A DNA stretch of 64,000 nucleotides, taken from assembly GCF_054482595.1 (NCBI RefSeq), contig NZ_CM137008.1; one strand, written 5' to 3'. A model generated the notes under the pieces. It saw nothing but the letters and a program-made list of their open reading frames with translations. It did not search any database and was not told where the DNA came from. The position numbers and the translations under genes were made by a program. Positions 4,737 through 63,522 of this stretch are shown in pieces (within the stretch, counting starts at the first letter, position 1; each line of letters starts with the position of its first letter).

Positions 4737-5869
4737 GACTGAAGATTCTCCGCAAGCCATGATGCCAGCTCGCCCGGTGTCATGGCGGCTATTTGTGCGC
4801 CGACATTTACCAGCACCTGGGCCGTATCGTGGTCATAGCAAGGTGTTGCGGTGCTATCGAGCGCCGCCAGTCCCAGCACTTTGATGCCGCTCTGGACACA
4901 CTTTTTCACCTGATGCGTCAGTAATGATGATGAACCCCCTTCGTAAAAATCGCTCACGAGGATAATGACGCTTTTCGCTGGTTGTTCAATAAGTTGCCGA
5001 CCATATTCCACGGCACTGGCGATATTGGTTCCGCCGCCTAATTGCACTTTCATTAATAACTCTACCGGATCGGCAACGTCTGCCGTGAGATCAACCACGC
5101 TGGTGTCAAACGCCACCAGATGGGTACGAATGCCGGGTAACTGCCATAAACAGGCCGCCATCACCGCAGAGTGGATCACCGAATCGACCATCGAGCCGCT
5201 TTGATCAACCAGTAAGACCAGTTGCCATTGTTCGCTTTGGCGTTTAATGCGGCTGTTAAAGCGGGGGGATTCGATATACAACTTGCCGTGTTGCGGGTGC
5301 CAGTGTTGCAGGTTGGCGCGCAGAGTACTTTTGAAATCAAAGTTTCGCGCCAGTGGAATAAATGAGCGGCGACGGCGATCGCGGACACCAGAAAAAGCCT
5401 GACGAACTTCCTTTGCCAGTCGAGCCATAATTTCTTCAACAACCTGGCGCACTATCCGGCGGGCGGCAGCCAGTACTTCGGGATTCATCAGATGTTTGGT
5501 GTGCAAAACGGCGCGTAGCAGGCTTTCAGAAGGCTGCATACGTTCCAGCACGTCGAGATTCGTCACCACATCTTCAATGCCATAGCGCAGTACGGCATCG
5601 CTTTCCAGCCGCTCAATCACCTGTTGCGGAAACAGCGTGTGAATACTGTTGATCCACTCAGGGGGGGTGAGATTTGAGCCACCTAATCCACCGGAGCGTT
5701 CACCACGCTGGAGCCGTTCAGGATCGCGCCCATACAGCCACTCCAGCGCGTGGTCTATCTGCCGGGCGTTGTCATCCAGCCCACAAAGCGTCGTTTCTGC
5801 CGCTTCGCCAAGAATTAATCGCCAGCGTTGTAGCTCACGGGTGGTCAGAAGATCGTTCAGTTCAGACAT
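4733..5869 (-). CDS. yehP: YehP, von Willebrand factor A (vWA) domain protein (378 aa)
   Basis: MIDAS-type motif LLVDQSGSM followed by ...GGGTNIASAV... and ...ILVSDFYEGG; start ATG 5867-5869 lies inside the yehM 3' end (8-nt overlap). Confidence 0.8.
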   Translation of the reverse strand: MSELNDLLTTRELQRWRLILGEAAETTLCGLDDNARQIDHALEWLYGRDPERLQRGERSGGLGGSNLTPPEWINSIHTLFPQQVIERLESDAVLRYGIEDVVTNLDVLERMQPSESLLRAVLHTKHLMNPEVLAAARRIVRQVVEEIMARLAKEVRQAFSGVRDRRRRSFIPLARNFDFKSTLRANLQHWHPQHGKLYIESPRFNSRIKRQSEQWQLVLLVDQSGSMVDSVIHSAVMAACLWQLPGIRTHLVAFDTSVVDLTADVADPVELLMKVQLGGGTNIASAVEYGRQLIEQPAKSVIILVSDFYEGGSSSLLTHQVKKCVQSGIKVLGLAALDSTATPCYDHDTAQVLVNVGAQIAAMTPGELASWLAENLQS

Positions 5870-8141
5870 GGAAAACTCCCCAGTTTTGCAGCGATGCCAG
5901 TGCCTGCTGTTCGAGTTGTTGATGATGTGCAATGGCTTGTGGTGGACAATGCAACGGCATTTGCAGCGCCGAAACGGGAAGTTGCGCCAGTTGATAATGC
6001 TCAAGCACCTGATGCGCCAGCGTCCCGCGTTCTCGTGGTGGTAGCCAGGCCATCGCCGCGCGTAAATCGGGCAGGGCATTGATAAAATTGGCATCACTCA
6101 GTTGATTTAAATGACTGCTGAAACCGGCGATAAATGCCGGCTGACAGGCCAGTTGATGACGGGCTAATGCCAGCAAACCGTGCAGCGCTTCGCCGGATTG
6201 TGCCGGGGATAACTGCGCCAGCATCGTCAGCGCCGCTTCGGCACTGGCGTTGGGATGTTCCAGACGCATCAGTGCGCCAAGAGCCGCGCCGCGATCCAGC
6301 GCCGGGGCATGGATTGCCTGACTGCGTCGCTCCAGTAAGGCTACCGCCGCAGAAAGAGAAATGCCGGGGAGCTGCACACCGCTATGCAGATCGCGCAGGA
6401 TATGACACAACGCTTGCCAGCTATGCAGGTGAGCGTGAAACTCCTTTTCATCCGGTCTGCCGTTGGATTCACACAGCCACAGCGTGCGATCGATAGCCGC
6501 GCATAACGTCGTTTGTAATATCTGCGCGCCTTGCATACCGCTAATTTCATCCAGCCGCCATAAGGCATATAGCACTTCCAGCGCCTGGCCCATTTCGGCA
6601 AATTGATTTTCCTGGGCTATTAATAATGTGAGTTGTTCCAGTAATTGTTGACTGAAGGACGCCAGACCCGCTAACGCTGCCTGGCTAAGACATGTGGTGA
6701 TACTGCCGATTCCACCCGCGTCCAGCATATCGGCTTCTAATTTATGGCGTGCGGCTTCCTGGAGTGTGGCACCAAAGCAGGCGGCCTCAATCAATGCCGC
6801 ATGCTGGCTAAGCGGGCGGGTTAATTTCCAGCGTTCTTCACCGTTGCCTGCAAGTGTCAGTGTGCTTCCCTGCTGGCGTACAATCCCTGGGATCTCCAGT
6901 ATTGCCAGCCGATGTAACACCTGACTTTGCGCTAGTCCATTGGGGTTAAAGCGATTTAAGGTAAGCTCCGCCGGAAGAGAGATTGCGGTACGTTCCAGTT
7001 CGCAGGTGACATCTTTTGGCAGAGGCGGTTGTGGCGTAGAAGGGGCAAGTTTACCGAATCCGTCACCCGCTAATGTGTCTATCAACGTTAGCAGAATCGG
7101 ATCGGTGTCGGGATGAATAACTCCGCGATAGCTCCACGGCAACGGCGCGTTCAGGGCTTCTTTAATCAGCGAGCCTGCTATGGCATCCAGCCAGTCAGTG
7201 CGTAACGGTAGTTTATGTCCGCGCAACTGTGCCAGCGCCATCGCATGCAGATGAGCGGCAGCCATATCCGCGGTCGAAGCAGGCAAGTGGTGTTGGCGCA
7301 AACGGGTAAGAACCGTTTTTAGCAGTTGTTCTCCCGCCTGCTGTAAGCCCCACTGCCAGCACCAGCTTTGCCAGACCGGGGCAGGCATTCCTGAAAGGTA
7401 TCCTGCCAGCACATCAAGGCGCTTTTCACTGTAGGGTGTGAGATAACAACCTGTAACGGCATCTGCCAGCGAGGGCAATTCTGGCTTGTTAATGTCCTGC
7501 GGGCATTCGCGCCACATTTTTGCCAGTGCCGGAGCGTGCCAGCCACCGCAGACGACTAACACGTCGCCATTATTTTGCTGCACCGCCCATGCAATCCAGC
7601 GAGCCATAAAGGCTTCGCGCTGACGATTGAGTGCATCGCCGGGGAAATCGCCCCGCAGTTGGGCAAAATAGTGCGCCAGTGCAGAGGGTAATGCAGTTTG
7701 CTGGCTTTCATCTTCGAACAAGTGATCCCACAGGGTATCGCTGTTATCCATGCGGGTGGCACGCAGCAGCAAGGTCTGGCTTTCCTCTTGCGTATCAGGC
7801 GAATCGTCCTCTTCTTCACTCTGTGCCCAGCAAGGCAAATCGATGAAGTAAGTTTGTGCCTGAATACGACGAGCGGCTTGTAGCGCCTGCCACTCCGGCG
7901 AAAATTCAGCAAATGGCGTCCAGGCACCACGCCCGGGGGCTGCACCGTCCTGATACTGGCAATAACTGTAAATAGCTACCGGAAGCTGGTGGGCTAAAAA
8001 CAGTTCGTCTACCCGGTCATTAAAATCAGCCGGGCCTTCAATCAACACGTATCGTGGCCGCTGGCTTTCGATTAACGATTTCACCAGCCGGGCGCAGGCC
8101 GGACTATGATGCCGGATGCCGACAATTAACGGCTCGCTCAT
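5862..8141 (-). CDS. yehM: YehM, large uncharacterized protein (759 aa)
   Basis: Long ORF trimmed to MSEPLIVGIRHH (ATG at 8139-8141), 10 nt downstream of the yehL stop; no motif I can assign with confidence. Confidence 0.75.
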   Translation of the reverse strand: MSEPLIVGIRHHSPACARLVKSLIESQRPRYVLIEGPADFNDRVDELFLAHQLPVAIYSYCQYQDGAAPGRGAWTPFAEFSPEWQALQAARRIQAQTYFIDLPCWAQSEEEDDSPDTQEESQTLLLRATRMDNSDTLWDHLFEDESQQTALPSALAHYFAQLRGDFPGDALNRQREAFMARWIAWAVQQNNGDVLVVCGGWHAPALAKMWRECPQDINKPELPSLADAVTGCYLTPYSEKRLDVLAGYLSGMPAPVWQSWCWQWGLQQAGEQLLKTVLTRLRQHHLPASTADMAAAHLHAMALAQLRGHKLPLRTDWLDAIAGSLIKEALNAPLPWSYRGVIHPDTDPILLTLIDTLAGDGFGKLAPSTPQPPLPKDVTCELERTAISLPAELTLNRFNPNGLAQSQVLHRLAILEIPGIVRQQGSTLTLAGNGEERWKLTRPLSQHAALIEAACFGATLQEAARHKLEADMLDAGGIGSITTCLSQAALAGLASFSQQLLEQLTLLIAQENQFAEMGQALEVLYALWRLDEISGMQGAQILQTTLCAAIDRTLWLCESNGRPDEKEFHAHLHSWQALCHILRDLHSGVQLPGISLSAAVALLERRSQAIHAPALDRGAALGALMRLEHPNASAEAALTMLAQLSPAQSGEALHGLLALARHQLACQPAFIAGFSSHLNQLSDANFINALPDLRAAMAWLPPRERGTLAHQVLEHYQLAQLPVSALQMPLHCPPQAIAHHQQLEQQALASLQNWGVFHV

Positions 8142-9349: not shown

Positions 9350-9388
9350 ATAAAAAAACCTGCTGGTGAGGCAGGTTCTTTTATTTAC
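9350..9388. terminator. Bidirectional intrinsic-terminator-like hairpin, unit A; candidate 3' end of an antisense sRNA
   Basis: aaaaaaa-cctgc-tggtgag-gcagg-ttcttttattt: GC stem flanked by an A-run on one side and a T-run on the other. Confidence 0.5.
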
Positions 9389-9672
9389 TATTTTCAGGCC
9401 TAACACCACAGCCTGTGCAACATCGTGTTCCAACGAACGAATTATAACCACGGCTGGACCCCGTTGCAATTAAGATAATGAGATTTATAATCCAGACCGT
9501 TGGGACGTTGCGCCGGATCGAACCTATTTCAAGTCCTGGCTACCGGACGGGTGGTGCTTCAGGTGGTGCCCTGAGCCGGAGTGCAACATCGTGGTCCAAC
9601 ATACGTAAACCAGTATTGACAGGCAGTGTAAGGGTAAGGTGCTGGTGTTGCGCTCCTTAATAAGGAGAGCGG

Positions 9673-9762
9673 ATGGACTCGCTGACACAAAAGTTAACCG
9701 TGCTCATTGCTGTACTGGAGCTATTAGTAGCTCTGTTACGGTTGATTGATTTGTTGAAGTAA
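9673..9762 (+). CDS. zorP: Small hydrophobic 29-aa protein MDSLTQKLTVLIAVLELLVALLRLIDLLK; candidate type I toxin (ZorO/ZorP-like)
   Basis: ATG 9673 preceded by AGGAG (9662-9669) that lies in an inverted repeat (ctcctta/taaggag) able to sequester the RBS; single predicted TM helix; followed by a hairpin. Symbol recalled from the E. coli O157 zor-orz locus; which copy is O and which is P is uncertain. Confidence 0.55.
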   Translation: MDSLTQKLTVLIAVLELLVALLRLIDLLK

Positions 9763-9783
9763 CGGGCAAATTGAAACGCATCT

Positions 9784-9810
9784 AAGGGGGAAAACCGCTT
9801 CCCCCTTTAA
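9784..9810 (+). terminator. Hairpin downstream of small toxin ORF copy 1
   Basis: aaggggg / ccccctt stem with a 10-nt loop and a short T-run. Confidence 0.4.
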
Positions 9811-9959
9811 TAAAATGATTACTGTTTTTATTAATTCATCATATAACTCATTTTTATTTATAAATTCATCGATTTTATATTCAACGCACCATTTGACCGG
9901 GATGTGAATATTTATGGTGGGCTATTGGCAAAAAATATCTGGAAAGTAGATCGCAGAAA

Positions 9960-9998
9960 ATAAAAAAACCTGCTGGTGAGGCAGGTTCTTTTATTTAC
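9960..9998. terminator. Bidirectional intrinsic-terminator-like hairpin, unit B
   Basis: Same sequence as 9350-9388. Confidence 0.5.
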
Positions 9999-10280
9999 TA
10001 CAGTGACGCTAACTTGCTGATTGTGCAACATTTCGTACCAACGAATAAATTATAACCATATCCACACTCCATTGCAATTCAGTGAGTGAGATTTATAATC
10101 CTGCCCGTTGGGAGGTTGTGCCGGATCGGACCAATTTTAAGTCCTGGCTGCCGGACGGGTGGTGCCGCAGGCGGTGCCCTGATCCGGAGAGCAACGTTTC
10201 GTACCAACATACGTAAACCAGTATCGACAGGCAGTGTAAGGGTAAGGTGCTGGTGTTGCGCTCCTTAATAAGGAGAGCGG

Positions 10281-27635: not shown

Positions 27636-30116
27636 ATGTTGAGAATGACCCCACTTGCATCAGCAATCGTAGCGTTATTGCTCGGCATTGAAGCTTATGC
27701 AGCTGAAGAAACCTTTGATACCCATTTTATGATAGGTGGAATGAAAGACCAGCAGGTTGCAAATATTCGTCTTGATGATAATCAACCCTTGCCGGGGCAG
27801 TATGACATCGATATTTATGTCAATAAGCAATGGCACGGGAAATATGAGATCATTGTTAAAGACAACCCGCAAGAAACATGTTTATCAAGGGAAATTATCA
27901 AGCGGTTAGGCATTAATAGCGATAACTTCGCCAGCGGTAAGCAATGTTTAACATTTGAGCAACTTGTTCAGGGTGGGAGCTATACCTGGGATATCGGGGT
28001 TTTTCGTCTCGATTTCAGTGTCCCGCAGGCCTGGGTGGAAGAACTGGAAAGTGGCTATGTTCCACCGGAAAACTGGGAGCGGGGTATTAATGCGTTTTAT
28101 ACCTCTTATTATGTGAGTCAGTATTACAGTGACTATAAAGCGTCGGGTAATAGTAAGAGTACATATGTACGTTTTAACAGCGGGTTAAATTTACTGGGGT
28201 GGCAACTGCATTCTGATGCCAGTTTCAGTAAAACAAATAACAATCCAGGGGCGTGGAAAAGCAATACCCTGTATCTGGAACGTGGATTTGCCCAACTTCT
28301 CGGCACGCTTCGCGTGGGTGATATGTACACATCAAGCGATATTTTTGATTCTGTTCGCTTCAGAGGTGTGCGGTTGTTTCGTGATATGCAGATGTTGCCT
28401 AACTCGAAACAAAATTTTACGCCACGGGTGCAGGGGATTGCTCAGAGTAACGCGCTGGTAACTATTGAACAGAACGGTTTTGTGGTTTATCAGAAAGAGG
28501 TTCCCCCTGGCCCGTTTGCAATTACAGATTTGCAGTTGGCCGGTGGTGGAGCAGATCTTGATGTCAGCGTGAAAGAGGCGGACGGTTCGGTAACCACCTA
28601 TCTGGTGCCTTATGCAGCCGTGCCAAATATGCTGCAACCCGGCGTGTCGAAATATGATTTTGCGGCGGGTCGTAGCCATATTGAAGGGGCGAGCAAACAA
28701 AGTGATTTTGTCCAGGCGGGTTATCAGTATGGTTTTAATAACTTATTGACGCTGTATGGTGGCTCGATGGTCGCGAATAATTATTACGCGTTCACTTTGG
28801 GGACTGGCTGGAATACACGCATTGGTGCCATTTCCGTCGATGCCACGAAGTCGCATAGTAAACAAGACAACGGCGATGTGTTTGACGGGCAAAGTTATCA
28901 AATTGCCTACAACAAATTTGTGAGCCAAACGTCGACGCGTTTTGGTCTGGCGGCCTGGCGTTATTCGTCGCGTGACTACCGGACATTTAACGATCACGTT
29001 TGGGCAAACAATAAAGATAATTATCGCCGTGATGAAAACGATGTCTATGACATTGCCGATTATTACCAGAATGATTTTGGTCGCAAAAATAGCTTTTCCG
29101 CCAATATGAGCCAGTCATTGCCAGAAGGTTGGGGTTCTGTGTCATTAAGTACGTTATGGCGAGATTACTGGGGGCGTAGCGGCAGTAGTAAGGATTATCA
29201 GTTGAGTTATTCCAACAACCTGCGACGGATAAGCTATACCCTCGCGGCAAGCCAGGCTTATGACGAGAATCATCATGAAGAGAAACGTTTTAATATTTTT
29301 ATATCGATTCCCTTTGATTGGGGTGATGACGTTTCGACGCCTCGTCGGCAAATATATATGTCTAACTCAACGACGTTTGATGATCAGGGGGTTGCCTCAA
29401 ATAATACGGGATTATCAGGAACAGTAGGGAGTCGGGATCAGTTCAATTATGGTGTCAACCTGAGTCATCAACATCAGGGAAATGAAACGACAGCTGGAGC
29501 GAATTTAACCTGGAACGCGCCGGTGGCAACAGTGAATGGCAGTTATAGTCAGTCGAGTACTTATCGACAGGCTGGAGCCAGTGTTTCAGGGGGCATTGTC
29601 GCCTGGTCGGGTGGCGTTAATCTGGCGAACCGTCTTTCCGAAACGTTTGCTGTGATGAATGCGCCAGGAATTAAAGATGCTTATGTCAATGGGCAAAAAT
29701 ATCGCACAACAAACCGTAATGGAGTGGTGGTATACGACGGAATGACACCTTATCGGGAAAATCACCTGATGCTGGATGTGTCGCAAAGCGATAGCGAAGC
29801 AGAATTACGTGGCAACCGGAAAATTGCCGCCTCTTATCGCGGCGCGGTTGTACTGGTTAATTTTGATACCGATCAGCGCAAGCCCTGGTTTATAAAAGCG
29901 TTAAGAGCGGATGGGCAACCATTAACGTTTGGTTATGAAGTCAATGATATCCATGGTCATAATATTGGCGTTGTCGGCCAGGGAAGTCAGTTATTTATTC
30001 GCACCAATGAAGTACCGCCATCGGTTAATGTAGCAATTGATAAGCAACAAGGACTTTCATGCACAATCACCTTCGGTAAAGAGATTGATGAAAGTAGGAA
30101 TTATATTTGCCAGTAA
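27636..30116 (+). CDS. yehB: Outer-membrane fimbrial usher YehB (826 aa)
   Basis: Large beta-barrel usher-like protein; ORF-track TTG start 27621 trimmed to the ATG at 27636. Confidence 0.85.
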   Translation: MLRMTPLASAIVALLLGIEAYAAEETFDTHFMIGGMKDQQVANIRLDDNQPLPGQYDIDIYVNKQWHGKYEIIVKDNPQETCLSREIIKRLGINSDNFASGKQCLTFEQLVQGGSYTWDIGVFRLDFSVPQAWVEELESGYVPPENWERGINAFYTSYYVSQYYSDYKASGNSKSTYVRFNSGLNLLGWQLHSDASFSKTNNNPGAWKSNTLYLERGFAQLLGTLRVGDMYTSSDIFDSVRFRGVRLFRDMQMLPNSKQNFTPRVQGIAQSNALVTIEQNGFVVYQKEVPPGPFAITDLQLAGGGADLDVSVKEADGSVTTYLVPYAAVPNMLQPGVSKYDFAAGRSHIEGASKQSDFVQAGYQYGFNNLLTLYGGSMVANNYYAFTLGTGWNTRIGAISVDATKSHSKQDNGDVFDGQSYQIAYNKFVSQTSTRFGLAAWRYSSRDYRTFNDHVWANNKDNYRRDENDVYDIADYYQNDFGRKNSFSANMSQSLPEGWGSVSLSTLWRDYWGRSGSSKDYQLSYSNNLRRISYTLAASQAYDENHHEEKRFNIFISIPFDWGDDVSTPRRQIYMSNSTTFDDQGVASNNTGLSGTVGSRDQFNYGVNLSHQHQGNETTAGANLTWNAPVATVNGSYSQSSTYRQAGASVSGGIVAWSGGVNLANRLSETFAVMNAPGIKDAYVNGQKYRTTNRNGVVVYDGMTPYRENHLMLDVSQSDSEAELRGNRKIAASYRGAVVLVNFDTDQRKPWFIKALRADGQPLTFGYEVNDIHGHNIGVVGQGSQLFIRTNEVPPSVNVAIDKQQGLSCTITFGKEIDESRNYICQ

Positions 30117-33104: not shown

Positions 33105-33240
33105 TCATCGCAACCAAACGACTCGGGGTGCCCTTCTTTGTGAAGGCTGAGAAATACCCGTATCACCTGATCTGGATAATGCCAGCGTAGGGAAGTCACG
33201 GACCACCAGGTCATTGCTTCTTCACGTTATGGCAGGAGCA
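33105..33240 (+). ncRNA. TPP riboswitch (THI element) in the thiM leader
   Basis: Contains ctcggggtgcccttctttgtgaaggctgagaaatacccgtatcacctgatctggataatgccagcgtagggaa, matching the recalled thiM THI-box aptamer; the platform reaches the SD ggcaggagc. Confidence 0.85.
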
Positions 33241-39981: not shown

Positions 39982-41034
39982 ATGACAGATATTGCGCAGT
40001 TGCTTGGCAAAGACGCCGACAACCTTTTACAGCACCGTTGTATGACTATTCCTTCTGACCAGCTTTATCTCCCCGGACATGACTACGTAGACCGCGTGAT
40101 GATTGACAATAATCGCCCGCCTGCGGTGTTACGTAATATGCAGACGTTGTACAACACCGGGCGTCTGGCTGGCACAGGATATCTTTCTATTCTGCCGGTT
40201 GACCAGGGCGTTGAGCACTCTGCCGGAGCTTCATTTGCTGCTAACCCGCTCTACTTTGACCCGAAAAACATTGTTGAACTGGCGATCGAAGCGGGCTGTA
40301 ACTGTGTGGCGTCAACTTACGGCGTGCTGGCGTCGGTATCGCGGCGTTATGCGCATCGCATTCCATTCCTCGTCAAACTTAATCACAACGAGACGCTAAG
40401 TTACCCGAATACCTACGATCAAACGCTGTATGCCAGCGTGGAGCAGGCGTTCAACATGGGCGCGGTTGCGGTTGGTGCGACTATCTATTTTGGCTCGGAA
40501 GAGTCACGTCGCCAGATTGAAGAAATTTCTGCGGCTTTTGAACGTGCGCACGAGCTGGGCATGGTGACAGTGCTGTGGGCCTATTTGCGTAACTCCGCCT
40601 TTAAGAAAGATGGCGTTGATTACCATGTTTCCGCCGACCTGACTGGTCAGGCGAACCATCTGGCGGCGACCATTGGCGCGGACATCGTCAAACAGAAAAT
40701 GGCGGAAAATAACGGCGGTTATAAAGCGATTAATTACGGTTATACCGACGATCGCGTGTACAGCAAGTTAACCAGCGAAAACCCGATTGATCTGGTGCGT
40801 TATCAGTTAGCTAACTGCTATATGGGCCGGGCTGGGTTGATAAACTCCGGCGGTGCTGCGGGCGGTGAAACTGACCTCAGTGATGCAGTGCGTACTGCGG
40901 TTATCAACAAACGCGCTGGCGGAATGGGGCTGATTCTTGGACGTAAAGCGTTCAAGAAATCGATGGCTGACGGCGTGAAACTGATTAACGCCGTGCAGGA
41001 TGTTTATCTCGATAGCAAAATTACTATCGCCTGA
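39982..41034 (+). CDS. fbaB: Fructose-bisphosphate aldolase class I FbaB (350 aa)
   Basis: ORF trimmed to [16 protein letters not shown] (ATG at 39982). Confidence 0.9.
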
Positions 41035-41039
41035 TACGA

Positions 41040-41185
41040 ACGGCACTACCCCGTAGGACGGATAAGGCGTTTACACTGCATCCGGCAACCTATGCCTGAT
41101 GCGACGCGGAAGCGTCTTATCATGCCTACATAGCACTGCCACGTATGTTTACACCGCATCCGGCATAAAAACACGCACACTTCGT
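41040..41185. repeat. REP/BIME cluster (several repetitive extragenic palindromes)
   Basis: tgcctgatgcgacgcggaagcgtcttatcatgcctaca plus gcatccggca-type units at 41080-41100 and 41150-41170. Confidence 0.7.
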
Positions 41186-41187
41186 TA

Positions 41188-41215
41188 CGGCTTCCCCCGG
41201 GAGGCCGTTTTTATG
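41188..41215 (+). terminator. Intrinsic terminator downstream of fbaB and the REP cluster
   Basis: cggcttcc-cccg-ggaggccg hairpin followed by ttttt. Confidence 0.5.
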
Positions 41216-41275
41216 CCTGTCATTCTGGATTAATTTTCATATTGTCGTTTTTGTGATCGTTATCTCGACATTTAA

Positions 41276-43475
<2,200 letters not shown>

Positions 43476-43484
43476 GGACGGTAT

Positions 43485-43937
43485 ATGACTAACCTGTTTG
43501 TTCGTAGCGGAATTTCTTTTGTCGATCGTAGCGAAGTTTTAACCCATATCGGTAATGAGATGCTCGCCAAAGGTGTGGTTCATGATACCTGGCCACAGGC
43601 ATTAATTGCCAGAGAAGCAGAATTCCCTACCGGGATAATGCTTGAGCAGCACGCCATTGCAATACCGCATTGTGAGGCGATTCATGCTAAGTCGTCAGCC
43701 ATTTATCTGTTAAGGCCAACAAATAAAGTTCATTTTCAGCAAGCGGATGATGATAATGACGTGGCGGTATCGTTGGTTATTGCGTTGATTGTGGAAAATC
43801 CGCAGCAGCAATTGAAACTTTTACGCTGTTTATTTGGCAAGTTACAACAGCCCGATATCGTTGAGACACTAATCACTCTTCCTGAAACTCAGTTAAAGGA
43901 ATACTTCACAAAGTATGTTTTAGATTCAGACGAATAA
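43485..43937 (+). CDS. gatA: PTS galactitol-specific EIIA (150 aa)
   Basis: Operon position and length; PTS EIIA-like. Confidence 0.9.
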   Translation: MTNLFVRSGISFVDRSEVLTHIGNEMLAKGVVHDTWPQALIAREAEFPTGIMLEQHAIAIPHCEAIHAKSSAIYLLRPTNKVHFQQADDDNDVAVSLVIALIVENPQQQLKLLRCLFGKLQQPDIVETLITLPETQLKEYFTKYVLDSDE

Positions 43938-43967
43938 ATCCCTCTGTAACAATAAAAAGGACTATTT

Positions 43968-44252
43968 ATGAAACGCAAGATTATTGTCGCTTGCGGAGGC
44001 GCGGTTGCGACCTCTACGATGGCGGCGGAAGAAATTAAAGAGTTGTGTCAGAGTCATAATATTCCTGTTGAATTAATCCAGTGTCGGGTTAATGAAATAG
44101 AAACCTATATGGATGGCGTGCATTTGATATGCACCACTGCCAAAGTGGAGCGTAGTTTTGGCGATATTCCATTAGTTCACGGCATGCCTTTTGTTTCTGG
44201 TGTCGGTATCGAAGCATTACAAAATAAAATTCTGACTATCTTACAGGGGTGA
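43968..44252 (+). CDS. gatB: PTS galactitol-specific EIIB (94 aa)
   Basis: Small EIIB with Cys near the N-terminus ([11 protein letters not shown]). Confidence 0.9.
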
Positions 44253-44255
44253 CCT

Positions 44256-45611
44256 ATGTTTTCAGAAGTCATGCGTTATATTCTCGATCTCGGCCCTACG
44301 GTGATGTTGCCGATTGTCATCATTATTTTTTCTAAAATATTAGGCATGAAGGCAGGCGATTGCTTTAAAGCGGGTCTGCATATCGGGATTGGCTTTGTTG
44401 GCATTGGCCTTGTGATTGGCTTAATGCTGGATTCCATTGGCCCGGCGGCGAAAGCGATGGCGGAAAATTTCGACCTGAATCTGCATGTGGTCGATGTCGG
44501 CTGGCCGGGCTCTTCACCAATGACCTGGGCGTCGCAAATTGCGCTGGTGGCGATTCCGATTGCGATTCTGGTTAACGTGGCGATGTTACTGACCCGTATG
44601 ACGCGGGTGGTAAATGTTGATATCTGGAATATCTGGCATATGACCTTCACCGGCGCGTTGCTGCATCTGGCAACCGGTTCATGGATGATAGGGATGGCGG
44701 GTGTGGTAATTCACGCGGCGTTTGTTTATAAGCTCGGCGACTGGTTTGCCCGCGATACCCGAAATTTCTTTGAGCTGGAAGGCATTGCAATCCCGCACGG
44801 TACGTCGGCGTATATGGGGCCAATTGCGGTGCTGGTCGATGCTATCATCGAGAAAATCCCAGGCGTTAACCGAATTAAATTTAGCGCCGACGATATTCAG
44901 CGCAAATTTGGTCCGTTTGGCGAGCCTGTCACCGTGGGTTTTGTGATGGGGCTGATTATCGGCATCCTCGCGGGTTACGATGTCAAAGGTGTATTGCAGC
45001 TGGCGGTAAAAACGGCGGCAGTGATGCTGCTGATGCCACGGGTGATTAAACCCATCATGGATGGTTTAACGCCCATCGCTAAGCAGGCTCGTAGTCGTTT
45101 ACAGGCGAAGTTCGGCGGTCAGGAGTTCCTGATTGGCCTTGATCCGGCGTTGCTGCTGGGACATACGGCGGTGGTATCGGCAAGCCTGATTTTTATCCCA
45201 CTCACCATTTTAATTGCTGTTTGTGTGCCGGGTAATCAGGTGCTGCCGTTTGGCGATCTTGCCACCATCGGCTTCTTCGTGGCGATGGCGGTCGCCGTGC
45301 ATCGTGGAAATCTGTTCCGCACCTTAATCTCGGGTGTCATCATTATGAGCATCACCCTGTGGATCGCGACGCAAACTATTGGTTTGCACACCCAACTGGC
45401 GGCTAATGCTGGGGCGTTAAAAGCCGGGGGTATGGTGGCTTCAATGGATCAGGGCGGTTCTCCCATTACCTGGTTACTGATTCAGGTTTTCTCCCCGCAA
45501 AATATTCCCGGTTTCATTATTATCGGTGCAATTTATCTGACCGGTATTTTCATGACCTGGCGTAGAGCGCGTGGCTTTATTAAACAAGAGAAAGTCGTTC
45601 TCGCAGAATAA
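44256..45611 (+). CDS. gatC: PTS galactitol-specific EIIC permease (451 aa)
   Basis: Polytopic membrane protein in the gat operon. Confidence 0.9.
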   Translation: MFSEVMRYILDLGPTVMLPIVIIIFSKILGMKAGDCFKAGLHIGIGFVGIGLVIGLMLDSIGPAAKAMAENFDLNLHVVDVGWPGSSPMTWASQIALVAIPIAILVNVAMLLTRMTRVVNVDIWNIWHMTFTGALLHLATGSWMIGMAGVVIHAAFVYKLGDWFARDTRNFFELEGIAIPHGTSAYMGPIAVLVDAIIEKIPGVNRIKFSADDIQRKFGPFGEPVTVGFVMGLIIGILAGYDVKGVLQLAVKTAAVMLLMPRVIKPIMDGLTPIAKQARSRLQAKFGGQEFLIGLDPALLLGHTAVVSASLIFIPLTILIAVCVPGNQVLPFGDLATIGFFVAMAVAVHRGNLFRTLISGVIIMSITLWIATQTIGLHTQLAANAGALKAGGMVASMDQGGSPITWLLIQVFSPQNIPGFIIIGAIYLTGIFMTWRRARGFIKQEKVVLAE

Positions 45612-45659
45612 TTTTTACCTGAGGGGGAGTTTATCCCCCCTTAACAATCAGGAGTTTTT

Positions 45660-46700
45660 ATGAAATCAGTGGTGAATGATACTGATGGTATCGTGCGCGT
45701 TGCAGAAAGCGTCATTCCTGAAATTAAACATCAGGATGAGGTACGGGTAAAAATTGCCAGCTCGGGCTTATGTGGTTCCGATTTACCCAGGATATTTAAA
45801 AATGGTGCACATTATTATCCAATAACGTTAGGCCATGAATTTAGCGGCTATATTGATGCGGTGGGATCCGGTGTTGATGATTTACACCCTGGCGATGCGG
45901 TTGCCTGTGTGCCGTTATTACCCTGTTTTACTTGTCCAGAGTGTTTGAAAGGGTTTTATTCCCAGTGCGCAAAATATGATTTTATTGGCTCGCGGCGTGA
46001 TGGTGGATTTGCTGAATATATTGTCGTTAAGCGAAAAAATGTCTTTGCTCTACCCACGGATATGCCTATTGAGGATGGGGCTTTTATTGAGCCGATTACC
46101 GTTGGACTGCATGCTTTTCATTTAGCGCAAGGTTGTGAGAATAAAAACGTTATTATTATTGGTGCCGGAACCATTGGCCTGCTGGCTATTCAGTGCGCTG
46201 TCGCGCTGGGAGCAAAGAGTGTGACGGCTATCGACATTAGCTCAGAAAAACTGGCACTGGCAAAATCTTTCGGTGCGATGCAAACATTTAACAGTAGCGA
46301 AATGAGCGCGCCGCAAATGCAGAGCGTTTTACGCGAACTGCGCTTTAATCAGCTTATCCTCGAGACGGCTGGCGTACCGCAAACTGTCGAACTGGCGGTA
46401 GAGATTGCCGGTCCTCATGCCCAACTGGCGCTGGTGGGCACGTTGCATCAGGATCTGCATTTAACATCGGCAACGTTTGGCAAAATATTGCGTAAAGAGC
46501 TGACGGTTATCGGCAGTTGGATGAACTACTCCAGCCCTTGGCCGGGGCAGGAGTGGGAAACGGCGAGCCGGTTGCTGACAGAACGTAAGTTAAGCCTGGA
46601 GCCATTAATCGCTCACCGTGGAAGCTTTGAAAGCTTCGCCCAGGCGGTGCGTGACATCGCTCGTAATGCCATGCCGGGCAAAGTGTTGCTCATTCCCTGA
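45660..46700 (+). CDS. gatD: Galactitol-1-phosphate 5-dehydrogenase GatD (346 aa, Zn-dependent MDR family)
   Basis: Zn-ADH-like motifs (GHEFSG; Cys cluster CFTCPEC); Rossmann GAGTIG. Confidence 0.9.
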   Translation: MKSVVNDTDGIVRVAESVIPEIKHQDEVRVKIASSGLCGSDLPRIFKNGAHYYPITLGHEFSGYIDAVGSGVDDLHPGDAVACVPLLPCFTCPECLKGFYSQCAKYDFIGSRRDGGFAEYIVVKRKNVFALPTDMPIEDGAFIEPITVGLHAFHLAQGCENKNVIIIGAGTIGLLAIQCAVALGAKSVTAIDISSEKLALAKSFGAMQTFNSSEMSAPQMQSVLRELRFNQLILETAGVPQTVELAVEIAGPHAQLALVGTLHQDLHLTSATFGKILRKELTVIGSWMNYSSPWPGQEWETASRLLTERKLSLEPLIAHRGSFESFAQAVRDIARNAMPGKVLLIP

Positions 46701-46705
46701 AACCG

Positions 46706-46735
46706 CGGGCCAGCGTGATGCTGGCCCGGTATTGT
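46706..46735 (+). terminator. Hairpin after gatD
   Basis: cgggccagc-gtgat-gctggcccg stem with a weak T-run. Confidence 0.45.
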
Positions 46736-46799
46736 GCAAAACAGATCATTCACCAATGGTCCCCCTTCGTTTACACTAGCTACAATTGAATATGGGTAA

Positions 46800-47579
46800 A
46801 TGACGATGAATTCATTCGAGCGAAGGAATAAGATCATCCAATTAGTGAATGAACAGGGAACCGTGCTTGTTCAGGATCTGGCGGGAGTATTTGCTGCCTC
46901 GGAAGCGACAATCCGTGCCGATTTGCGCTTTCTCGAACAAAAAGGCGTGGTTACGCGCTTTCATGGCGGTGCGGCGAAAATAATGTCCGGTAATAGTGAA
47001 ACCGAGACCCAGGAAGTCGGGTTTAAAGAGCGATTTCAGCTCGCCAGCGCGCCAAAAAACAGAATAGCGCAGGCGGCAGTCAAAATGATCCATGAAGGGA
47101 TGACCGTTATTCTCGACAGCGGAAGTACCACAATGCTTATCGCCGAAGGATTAATGACCGCTAAAAATATCACGGTGATTACCAACAGTCTCCCGGCAGC
47201 GTTTGCCCTTTCCGAAAATAAAGACATTACTCTGGTCGTCTGTGGTGGCACGGTCCGCCATAAAACGCGCTCGATGCATGGTTCCATTGCCGAGCGTTCA
47301 TTGCAGGATATTAATGCCGATTTAATGTTTGTCGGTGCTGATGGTATTGATGCGGTTAATGGTATTACGACCTTTAATGAGGGTTATTCCGTTAGCGGTG
47401 CGATGGTCACAGCCGCTAATAAAGTGATTGCCGTTCTCGATTCATCGAAATTTAACCGTCGCGGTTTTAATCAGGTACTGCCAATCGAAAAAATTGACAT
47501 TATTATTACCGATGATGCTGTATCAGAGGTGGATAAACTGGCATTGCAGAAGACACGGGTGAAATTAATTACGGTGTAG
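46800..47579 (+). CDS. gatR: DeoR-family repressor GatR, uninterrupted (259 aa; alternative start at 46806)
   Basis: N-terminal HTH (RRNKIIQLVNEQGTVLVQDLAGVFAASEATIRADLRFLEQKG) and a DeoR-type C-terminal domain; a single continuous ORF. Confidence 0.85.
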   Translation: MTMNSFERRNKIIQLVNEQGTVLVQDLAGVFAASEATIRADLRFLEQKGVVTRFHGGAAKIMSGNSETETQEVGFKERFQLASAPKNRIAQAAVKMIHEGMTVILDSGSTTMLIAEGLMTAKNITVITNSLPAAFALSENKDITLVVCGGTVRHKTRSMHGSIAERSLQDINADLMFVGADGIDAVNGITTFNEGYSVSGAMVTAANKVIAVLDSSKFNRRGFNQVLPIEKIDIIITDDAVSEVDKLALQKTRVKLITV

Positions 47580-47590
47580 TATTGTTCTGT

Positions 47591-47627
47591 ATGCCGGATA
47601 AGGTATTTACACCGCATCCGGCATTAC
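47591..47627. repeat. REP-like palindrome between convergent gatR and yegS
   Basis: tgccggat-aaggtatttacaccgca-tccggca inverted repeat. Confidence 0.5.
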
Positions 47628-47660
47628 GGATTCTCCCTGGTTCAAGAGAGAATAGTTTGA

Positions 47661-49450: not shown

Positions 49451-49537
49451 AAAAAATAAGCCCGTGTAAGGGAGATTACACAGGCTAAGGAGGTGGTTCC
49501 TGGTACAGCTAGCATTTTATGGGTTATGTTTTTCAGC
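49451..49537 (-). ncRNA. cyaR: CyaR (RyeE) small regulatory RNA
   Basis: Minus strand reads GCTGAAAAACATAACCCATAAAATGCTAGCTGTACCAGGAACCACCTCCTTAGCCTGTGTAATCTCCCTTACACGGGCTTATTTTTT, matching recalled CyaR including its terminator. Confidence 0.85.
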
Positions 49538-49621
49538 GAAACGGATGATAACCTTAATAAATGCAGCTGTATGTGATCGGTTTCTAAGAATTTTCCATCC
49601 GGGAAAAATAATCGAAATTAA

Positions 49622-51462: not shown

Positions 51463-51652
51463 AATGACTCCTTGATTGAAATTGTGTATCGAAAACAGCA
51501 TCTAAAGGTGCTGTTTACCGATTAAAGTATGAGCGATTTTCTGATGCCTGCCAGGGCGGAGAGATAATGTCAGTTTGCTGACCATGCGTGGGATAATGTT
51601 GCCGGATCGGGTCTGAACGCCATCTCCGGCTAACAAAATAATGTCGCTAAAA

Positions 51653-62854: not shown

Positions 62855-63000
62855 CGGGACGCTGAAACGGGAAAGCCCCTCCCGAGGAAGGGGCCATAAA
62901 TAAGGAAAGGGTCATGATGAAGTGGATCATCATCGTGGTGCTCTTAGTCATAAGCTTCCCGGCTTACTAAGACTACCAGGGCGGGGGAAACCCCGCTCTA
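62855..63000 (-). ncRNA. Candidate Sib antisense antitoxin sRNA, copy 1 (boundaries approximate)
   Basis: Inferred from the ibs/sib architecture, in which the antisense sRNA fully overlaps the ibs ORF; hairpin elements at both ends of the unit. Confidence 0.4.
62914..62970 (+). CDS. Ibs-family hydrophobic toxin peptide (18 aa, MMKWIIIVVLLVISFPAY)
   Basis: ATGATG start, wholly hydrophobic peptide ending in AY, RBS aggaaaggg; location between mdtA and yegL matches the recalled K-12 ibsA/ibsB-sibA/sibB locus. Confidence 0.65.
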   Translation: MMKWIIIVVLLVISFPAY

Positions 63001-63179
63001 CCCTCACTCCTGAAAGTATGCCTTCACGATAAGATTGTCAATCCGCAGGCTTTGCAGTCTGCGATCCTGCCAGCAAATATTCTTTGCGAGTCGTTACGCA
63101 ATAATCACAGAGGAAACTATTTTGTTCACGCGTTAGCGATAGACTGTATTCAGGGCGAAAGGAGGTAAGCCGACGATTT

Positions 63180-63330
63180 CAGCGGGATGCTGAAACGGGA
63201 AAGCCCCTCCCGGAGAAGAGGGCTTTTAATAAGGAAAGGGTTATGATGAAGCACGTCATCATACTGGTGATACTCTTAGTGATTAGCTTCCAGGCTTACT
63301 AAGAACACCAGGGGGAGGGGGAAACCTCTC
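63180..63330 (-). ncRNA. Candidate Sib antisense antitoxin sRNA, copy 2 (boundaries approximate)
   Basis: As copy 1; minus-strand hairpin gccctcttctccgggaggggc followed by a T-rich run just beyond the ibs start. Confidence 0.4.
63243..63302 (+). CDS. ibsA: Ibs-family hydrophobic toxin peptide (19 aa, MMKHVIILVILLVISFQAY)
   Basis: Near-identical to recalled IbsA (MMKHVIILVILLVISFPAY); A versus B assignment uncertain. Confidence 0.65.
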   Translation: MMKHVIILVILLVISFQAY

Positions 63331-63522
63331 CCTAACCCTCACTCCTGAAATTATGTCACTCCGCCCTTAGTGTCAATCGACGGCTCTCCGTTCTTGCGAG
63401 GCGAATAGCAAAATTTTCTGCGCCGCCGGGCCTAATTCTGAAAGTTTCTTCGTTTGCTCTTATTTCATTATTGCAGTCGGTATGATACCGGACCTCGATA
63501 ATTCTCTAAGAAAGGATTTCTT

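Follow-up and report, generated by a model that had tools for sequence, protein, structure and literature searches.

A probable BIME-2-type REP array between fbaB and the gat operon of Escherichia coli, upstream of a conserved Rho-independent terminator

The window analyzed here is a stretch of 64,000 nucleotides from contig NZ_CM137008.1 (assembly GCF_054482595.1), in which a first-pass annotation, made from the letters alone, had placed a REP/BIME cluster and a terminator hairpin at 41040-41220, between fbaB and the gat operon. The window is E. coli sequence from a strain other than K-12. A 551-bp query spanning this locus found a match in 5414 of 5426 complete E. coli genomes, with at least 99% identity in 12 genomes only, the top match being strain XH990 (99.6%). 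The gene coordinates given here are those of the XH990 RefSeq annotation, transferred to the window at this level of identity over the 551 bp. The RefSeq features below the match are fbaB, encoding a class I fructose-bisphosphate aldolase, and gatY. The fbaB coding sequence lies at approximately 39982-41034 (+ strand), with its TGA stop codon at 41032-41034 by both the mapping and the sequence itself. Gene gatY, the first of gatYZABCD-gatR, lies at 41330-42184 (+ strand, ATG at 41330 in the XH990 annotation) and is 100% identical between the window and XH990; it is followed by gatZABCD, a gene for a DeoR/GlpR-family regulator (gatR) and the convergent yegS. As both fbaB and gatY are read from the + strand, the 295-bp spacer between them is the fbaB 3' UTR followed by the gat promoter.

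RefSeq annotates no feature at the REP locus. The K-12 record NC_000913.3 likewise has no repeat feature between fbaB and gatY, but this silence carries no information, as the record is also blank for repeats at 5000-6600, where the REP1 of K-12 is annotated. Two 44-codon open reading frames run across the array (41046-41180 on the - strand and 41099-41233 on the + strand), neither of them annotated by RefSeq. Both are repeat artefacts, a mechanical result of the REP repeats, and the spacer is in this respect a warning to annotators. A literature search returned no paper linking fbaB or gatY with REPs and no experimental data specific to this locus.

Three REP-family units were identified in the spacer by comparison with reference units as printed in two papers, including the y, z1 and z2 queries of PMC11208160. 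REP1 (GTAGGACGGATAAGGCGTTTACACTGCATCCGGCA, 41053-41087, + strand) is a y-type unit in the GTAG-first orientation, starting 18 nt 3' of the fbaB stop codon, with 32/35 identity to the published y and 4 mismatches in 34 positions against an EcoCyc-derived consensus. It is joined by a 5-nt tail-to-tail linker (ACCTA, 41088-41092) to REP2 (TGCCTGATGCGACGCGGAAGCGTCTTATCATGCCTAC, 41093-41129, + strand), an inverted REP of the z2 type which has CTAC at its end and 32/37 identity to the published z2. A 13-nt head-to-head linker follows (ATAGCACTGCCAC, 41130-41142), placed from the alignments and from a 78-bp direct repeat; its paralogue, ACGGCACTACCCC, lies to the left of REP1, so that the linker marks the boundary of a tandem unit. 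REP3 (GTATGTTTACACCGCATCCGGCA, 41143-41165, + strand) is a y-type remnant, recognized by comparison with the intact copies in allele L004 and in the divergent Escherichia E69. It matches y over the 21-nt tail/loop half only and then ends, and an internal deletion of 12 bp has taken GTCGGAAAAGGC from between 41146 and 41147. The foot tetranucleotides are GTAG in REP1 (41053-41056), CTAC in REP2 (41126-41129) and a degenerate GTAT in REP3 (41143-41146).

When the 64-kb window was scanned by Hamming distance with the full-length units, it returned these three units, a y REP at 47589-47622 and a weak candidate at 51601-51634, and nothing else. In a control of 50 shuffles of the window, with 11 mismatches allowed, the mean number of matches was 0.02 for y and 0.0 for z2, which excludes chance as the source of the REP units. 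Scanning with a REP consensus, the check that had been proposed along with the cluster, thus came out in its favor. A degenerate 13-nt REP pattern allowing 2 mismatches was not discriminating across the window (8 matches against 7.9 by chance). The weak candidate (51601-51634, + strand) is y-REP-like with 8 mismatches in 34. When the 77-nt REP1-REP2 pair was searched by blastn against the 5426 genomes, it occurred at 40 or more places each in 4923 records, and 5425 genomes had a place with 80% coverage or more, among them genomes in which this locus lacks the pair. What REP1 and REP2 form is hence a high-copy dispersed extragenic repeat, and its recurrence contradicts the idea that y/z2 units are absent from the rest of the genome. 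The Rfam naRNA4 model of a y-z2 pair also matches at 41056-41126, in line with the REP assignment.

The fbaB stop codon itself sits within GCCTGAT(G/A)CG (41029-41043), a copy of the REP tail motif. In the majority of alleles, including that of K-12 (L001), 9 extra bases, ATACGCCTT, directly follow the stop codon, placing REP1 27 nt from the stop rather than 18 nt as in the window. By its sequence this 9-bp segment looks like either a very degenerate fourth REP remnant or a slippage indel.

BIME-1 elements consist of z1 and y units joined by a long L linker, in which an IHF site is often present, and BIME-2 elements of z2 and y units with a short linker, in tandem and in strain-variable number (PMC3333891). 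The order here is y (GTAG-first), 5-nt linker, z2 (CTAC-last), 13-nt linker and y remnant, with alternating orientation. A 19-nt block, GTTTACACYGCATCCGGCA, is repeated 78 bp apart, and GCACTACCCC to the left of REP1 is paralogous to GCACTGCCAC to the left of REP3. From this direct repeat and the paralogous left flanks we infer that the array is 1.5 copies of a 78-bp BIME-2-type tandem unit, whose length without the 12-bp loss would be 90 bp. It is like E. coli BIME-2 in the Gilson/Bachellier nomenclature (PMC3333891) in its alternating y and z2 units, short tail-to-tail linker and tandem unit, and also in being extragenic, in lying in a 3' UTR and in having a strain-variable copy number. It is unlike them in being small and partly decayed, its last y unit having lost 12 bp and changed GTAG to GTAT.

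The folding potential of the three units differs. REP2 alone folds at -15.7 kcal/mol (z -3.6), and none of 200 shuffles folded equally well. REP1 alone reaches -7.4 kcal/mol (z -0.6), a weak fold in which the expected internal loop is present; its inner stem is weakened by two substitutions (ACACTG versus ACGCCG in the y reference), whereas the O157/B allele of REP1 folds at -14.4 kcal/mol. The REP3 remnant (-2.6 kcal/mol, z +0.4) forms no hairpin. Only REP2 is thus a robust stand-alone hairpin, REP1 being decayed in this strain and REP3 a half-copy. Of the "at least three palindromes" of the first-pass annotation, the three REP units stand, but as palindromes one is good, one is weak and one lacks a hairpin. 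REP1 and REP2 together fold as one long hairpin at -36.5 kcal/mol (z -5.8), the terminator hairpin alone at -15.1 kcal/mol (z -2.6), and the whole 3' UTR region at -71.6 kcal/mol (z -4.7).

The array is polymorphic among strains. A 59-nt locus-specific REP2 segment was found in 2671 of the 5426 complete genomes, and a copy of the REP1-REP2 pair at least 95% identical in 3162, so a multi-REP array is present in about half of the genomes or more. The single-REP junction of the L003 type, with one fused REP, was present in at least 1005 genomes, and short alleles made up 13 of 40 rows in an even-step sample (about a third). An intact REP3 junction was found in 32 genomes. In a further 308, fbaB is followed by a different sequence that continues into a ribitol/arabitol (rbt/dal) cassette, and there are no REPs. 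Depending on the allele there are therefore 0, 1, 2.5 or 3 REP units at the locus, and the comparison of copy number among strains that had been suggested gave variable REPs next to an unchanged terminator. Across 11 alleles the range was from one weak to three strong REPs, and the fold of the 3' UTR from -28 to -78 kcal/mol.

The long allele has an intact REP3, GTATGTCGGAAAAGGCGTTTACACCGCATCCGGCA, which identifies the form shared by the window and K-12 as carrying a 12-bp internal deletion. Short alleles lack exactly the 78-bp unit and retain one fused y REP, which is weak (-4 to -8 kcal/mol). They fall into two classes, with a REP1-like left flank (L003, L009) or a REP3-like left flank (L010), implying at least one collapse of the array; the two flanks suggest that there were probably two independent collapses to a single REP. 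For an outgroup, an exact 20-mer from the gat promoter was searched against GTDB species representatives, giving two true Escherichia loci and three chance matches in unrelated MAGs. One of the two loci, in the divergent Escherichia E69 (fbaB 94% and gatY 90% identical), has three intact canonical REPs, and the other, in E1V33 (95% and 94%), has the truncated form. The presence of the array in both indicates that it is old, and the single-REP alleles would most simply be derived.

Downstream of the array, 21 nt after the REP3 remnant, lies the fbaB intrinsic terminator (41187-41214, + strand), identified by terminator scan, fold and conservation. Its hairpin (41187-41208; ACGGCTTCC-CCCG-GGAGGCCGT) has a 9-bp stem with 6 G-C pairs and a 4-nt loop, and is followed by TTTTTAT (T-run 41208-41212, A 41213, T 41214), as had been predicted for the end of the cluster. 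The terminator scan alone did not rise above shuffles (3 found, 1.6 expected). The hairpin was kept in all 11 gat-bearing alleles examined, which differ here only in the loop (CCCG, TATC, TCC, CAC), in the length of the T-run (5-9) and in an A-to-G substitution at the base that G.U pairing tolerates. The T-run of 5 in the window is the shortest seen, against 7-9 in the other alleles, and the efficiency of termination in this strain (5 T, then A) is uncertain. An A-rich arm (GGCATAAAAAC, 41162-41172, + strand) forms an 11-nt inverted repeat, 100% complementary to 41207-41217; it is the T-to-A change in the T-run that makes the U-tract perfectly complementary (11/11) to it. The minimum free energy fold of 41160-41220 was -24.5 kcal/mol (z -4.05), and pairing of the A-rich arm with the U-tract arm could lengthen the terminator helix. 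Shortening of the U-tract by the same change might, on the other hand, weaken termination and permit read-through from fbaB into gat. In a K-12 Term-seq table the minus strand is free of listed 3' ends from 2177079 to 2185342, an interval that includes fbaB; the table has 3' ends inside gatY and none in the fbaB-gatY spacer (2177205-2177511 in K-12). Probably fbaB was poorly expressed under the Term-seq conditions.

About 50 bp 3' of the terminator begins a sigma-70-like candidate gatY promoter (TCGACA-18-CATTAT, 41265-41294, + strand), the sole match of a consensus scan in 40500-41800, lying inside a block that is near-invariant among alleles. The REPs and terminator therefore do lie between the fbaB stop codon (41032-41034) and a gat promoter, ahead of the gatY ATG at 41330, as the first-pass annotation had it. 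Its further suggestion, that the REPs separate fbaB from that promoter, holds for position but not for a conserved separator: since REP number varies and the terminator does not, the terminator and not the REPs is what is conserved in that role. The near-invariant sequence TTTTGTGATCGTTATCTCGA (41249-41268) overlaps the candidate -35 and includes a Dam site (GATC, 41255-41258). A preprint (PMC11741368) reports that in a dam mutant the gat operon was among the most down-regulated genes; any link of this with the Dam site would be conjectural.

Together, these data make it highly probable that the locus is a BIME-2-type array in the 3' UTR of fbaB, directly upstream of a conserved Rho-independent terminator. 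On this reading fbaB transcripts would traverse the REPs and end at the terminator, which would insulate gat from transcription of fbaB. Should the terminator be breached, the REP1/REP2 duplex and the REP2 hairpin would be a second line of defense against 3'-to-5' exonucleases, and on the DNA the y unit may provide a site for gyrase. The array could have originated and changed in size through TnpA-REP activity, unequal recombination between the direct repeats, or both, as in BIME-2. The REPs would then be a largely dispensable passenger of the 3' UTR which may stabilize mRNA or bind gyrase. As many strains lack most of the array, its contribution here is at most modulatory, and the decay of REP1, the dead REP3, the roughly one third of genomes with a single REP and the 308 with none argue against an important role specific to this locus.

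Knowledge of REP/BIME elements goes back about 40 years, and variation of BIME-2 copy number between strains is documented, so the locus is an ordinary feature of a kind already described. It has little importance beyond correct annotation of the spacer. It does offer a natural allele series, with three intact, two and a half, one or no REPs ahead of the same terminator and beside the same genes, which could be used to measure the effect of REPs on mRNA stability, termination and gyrase binding in their native context.

The alternative that survives best, which we nevertheless consider unlikely, is that the array is a selected and important stabilizer of fbaB mRNA, blocking PNPase and RNase II and so setting fbaB expression. 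REPs are resistant to exonucleases and occur in association with the 3' ends of mRNAs (PMC6061677), and such stabilizers are established in the literature. The array shares with known examples such as that of malE-malF the form of transcribed hairpins 3' of a coding sequence that are able to block 3' exonucleases: its position is within the 3' UTR, on the strand that is transcribed, its REP1/REP2 duplex is very stable and it has been kept in divergent lineages. Unlike in those examples, however, an intrinsic terminator lies downstream, so that the primary structure at the 3' end is something other than the REPs, and the terminator hairpin would already shield that end. Roughly one third of genomes are also down to one weak REP, REP1 and REP3 are decaying in this strain, and the K-12 Term-seq table has no 3' end at the locus.

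Somewhat less likely again is a strong gyrase site that relieves supercoiling between fbaB and gat, acting as a topological insulator between co-directional units. Gyrase cleaves a subset of BIME-2 elements in which cleavage is over-represented, cutting mainly y units and these more than z2, independently of transcription (PMC6379681), and the composition of the array is that of BIME-2. Of the two proteins named for it by the first-pass annotation, gyrase and IHF, gyrase alone would be a plausible ligand. Only a subset of BIME-2 is cleaved, though, and the well-cut elements named in PMC6379681 are at other loci; fbaB and gatY were not found in the gyrase-map supplements of that paper that were searched. 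The stem of the only y unit left intact here is degraded, and it is common for strains to carry a single REP or none.

Expression of the y-z2 pair as a small nucleoid-associated RNA like naRNA4, working with HU, seems to us very improbable. The Rfam naRNA4 model (RF02564) does match 41056-41126 at 56.1 bits (E ~1e-8 to 1e-9), and the pair has the two-hairpin y-z2 architecture of REP325/naRNA4, with nearly every stem position aligned. The score is nonetheless 3.4 bits below the gathering threshold of 59.5, so the sequence falls outside the family, a shortfall that comes from a linker 6 nt shorter than that of the model. REP325 moreover lies at a different locus, and a discrete RNA product of the element here would be hypothetical. 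The model represents a y-z2 REP pair (from REP325), which any BIME-2 unit would resemble, and a consensus scan gave no promoter-like site upstream of the pair within the spacer. A snoR35 match (E 0.25) was noise.

The array also forms one end of an exchangeable segment. Between the stop codons of fbaB and yegS (41035-47660), the REP array, gatYZABCD-gatR and a distal REP make up an alternative cassette, replaced in the 308 genomes mentioned above by a ribitol/D-arabitol (rbt/dal) set of about 10 kb with different terminators and no REPs (L011/L012, NZ_CP024232.1). That gat and rtl/atl are mutually exclusive is an old genetic observation, and this replacement of gat by rbt/dal matches it. The gat cassette is flanked by REPs, with the BIME at its left end and, at its right end, a y-type REP (GTATGCCGGATAAGGTATTTACACCGCATCCGGCA, 47589-47623) with 31/35 identity to y. 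The left homology break of the swap is no more than a few bases away from the fbaB stop codon, at GCC|TGAT, which resembles the "type I" cleavage consensus of TnpA-REP (TGCC|TGAT). The REPs might then be scars or tools of cassette exchange, with REP/TnpA-REP recombination having installed or swapped the gat cassette, a proposal to which we likewise give very little credence. The gatR frame is intact (46800-47579, 259 codons, a DeoR/GlpR regulator in the XH990 annotation). In K-12, gatR is interrupted by an IS element; the gat operon of this strain is thus likely to be inducible and not constitutive.

According to PMC12306157 (citing Liang et al. 2015), a REP no more than 15 nt past a stop codon causes ribosomes to stall at termination and lowers expression through tmRNA. 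REP1, as the first element past the fbaB stop, might on that rule lower FbaB by stalling ribosomes, a possibility still more remote than a small RNA, since its distance from the stop, 18 nt in the window and 27 nt in most alleles, K-12 included, exceeds the 15-nt limit. Control of this stop-proximal type was accordingly rejected for fbaB. The distal y REP begins 9 nt after the gatR stop codon (47577-47579), within the 15 nt, and could by its position bring about REP-mediated translational down-regulation of the gat repressor.

Least credible of all, to the point of being scarcely conceivable, is a BIME-1/RIB-type element recruiting IHF, which the first-pass annotation had named and for which BIME-1 elements carry sites (PMC3333891): the array does share with BIME-1/RIB a y REP paired with an inverted REP, but the spacer (41035-41329) has no z1 unit, no long L linker (the linkers being 5 and 13 nt) and no match to the IHF consensus WATCAANNNNTTR, whose sole match in the window is at 27896, so this type was excluded and the suggested IHF binding dropped with it.

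Within REP2, the natural target of IS621, ATCAGGCCTAC (PMC11208160), is altered to ATCATGCCTAC (41119-41129) in all alleles examined, suggesting that REP2 is probably not a preferred IS621 insertion site. Elsewhere in the window, other Rfam matches at gathering level (62899-63376, 49454-49539, 9352-10035 and 33114-33210) comprised two SIB antitoxin RNAs, CyaR, two OrzO-P antitoxin RNAs and a TPP riboswitch, as expected for this region of the E. coli chromosome.
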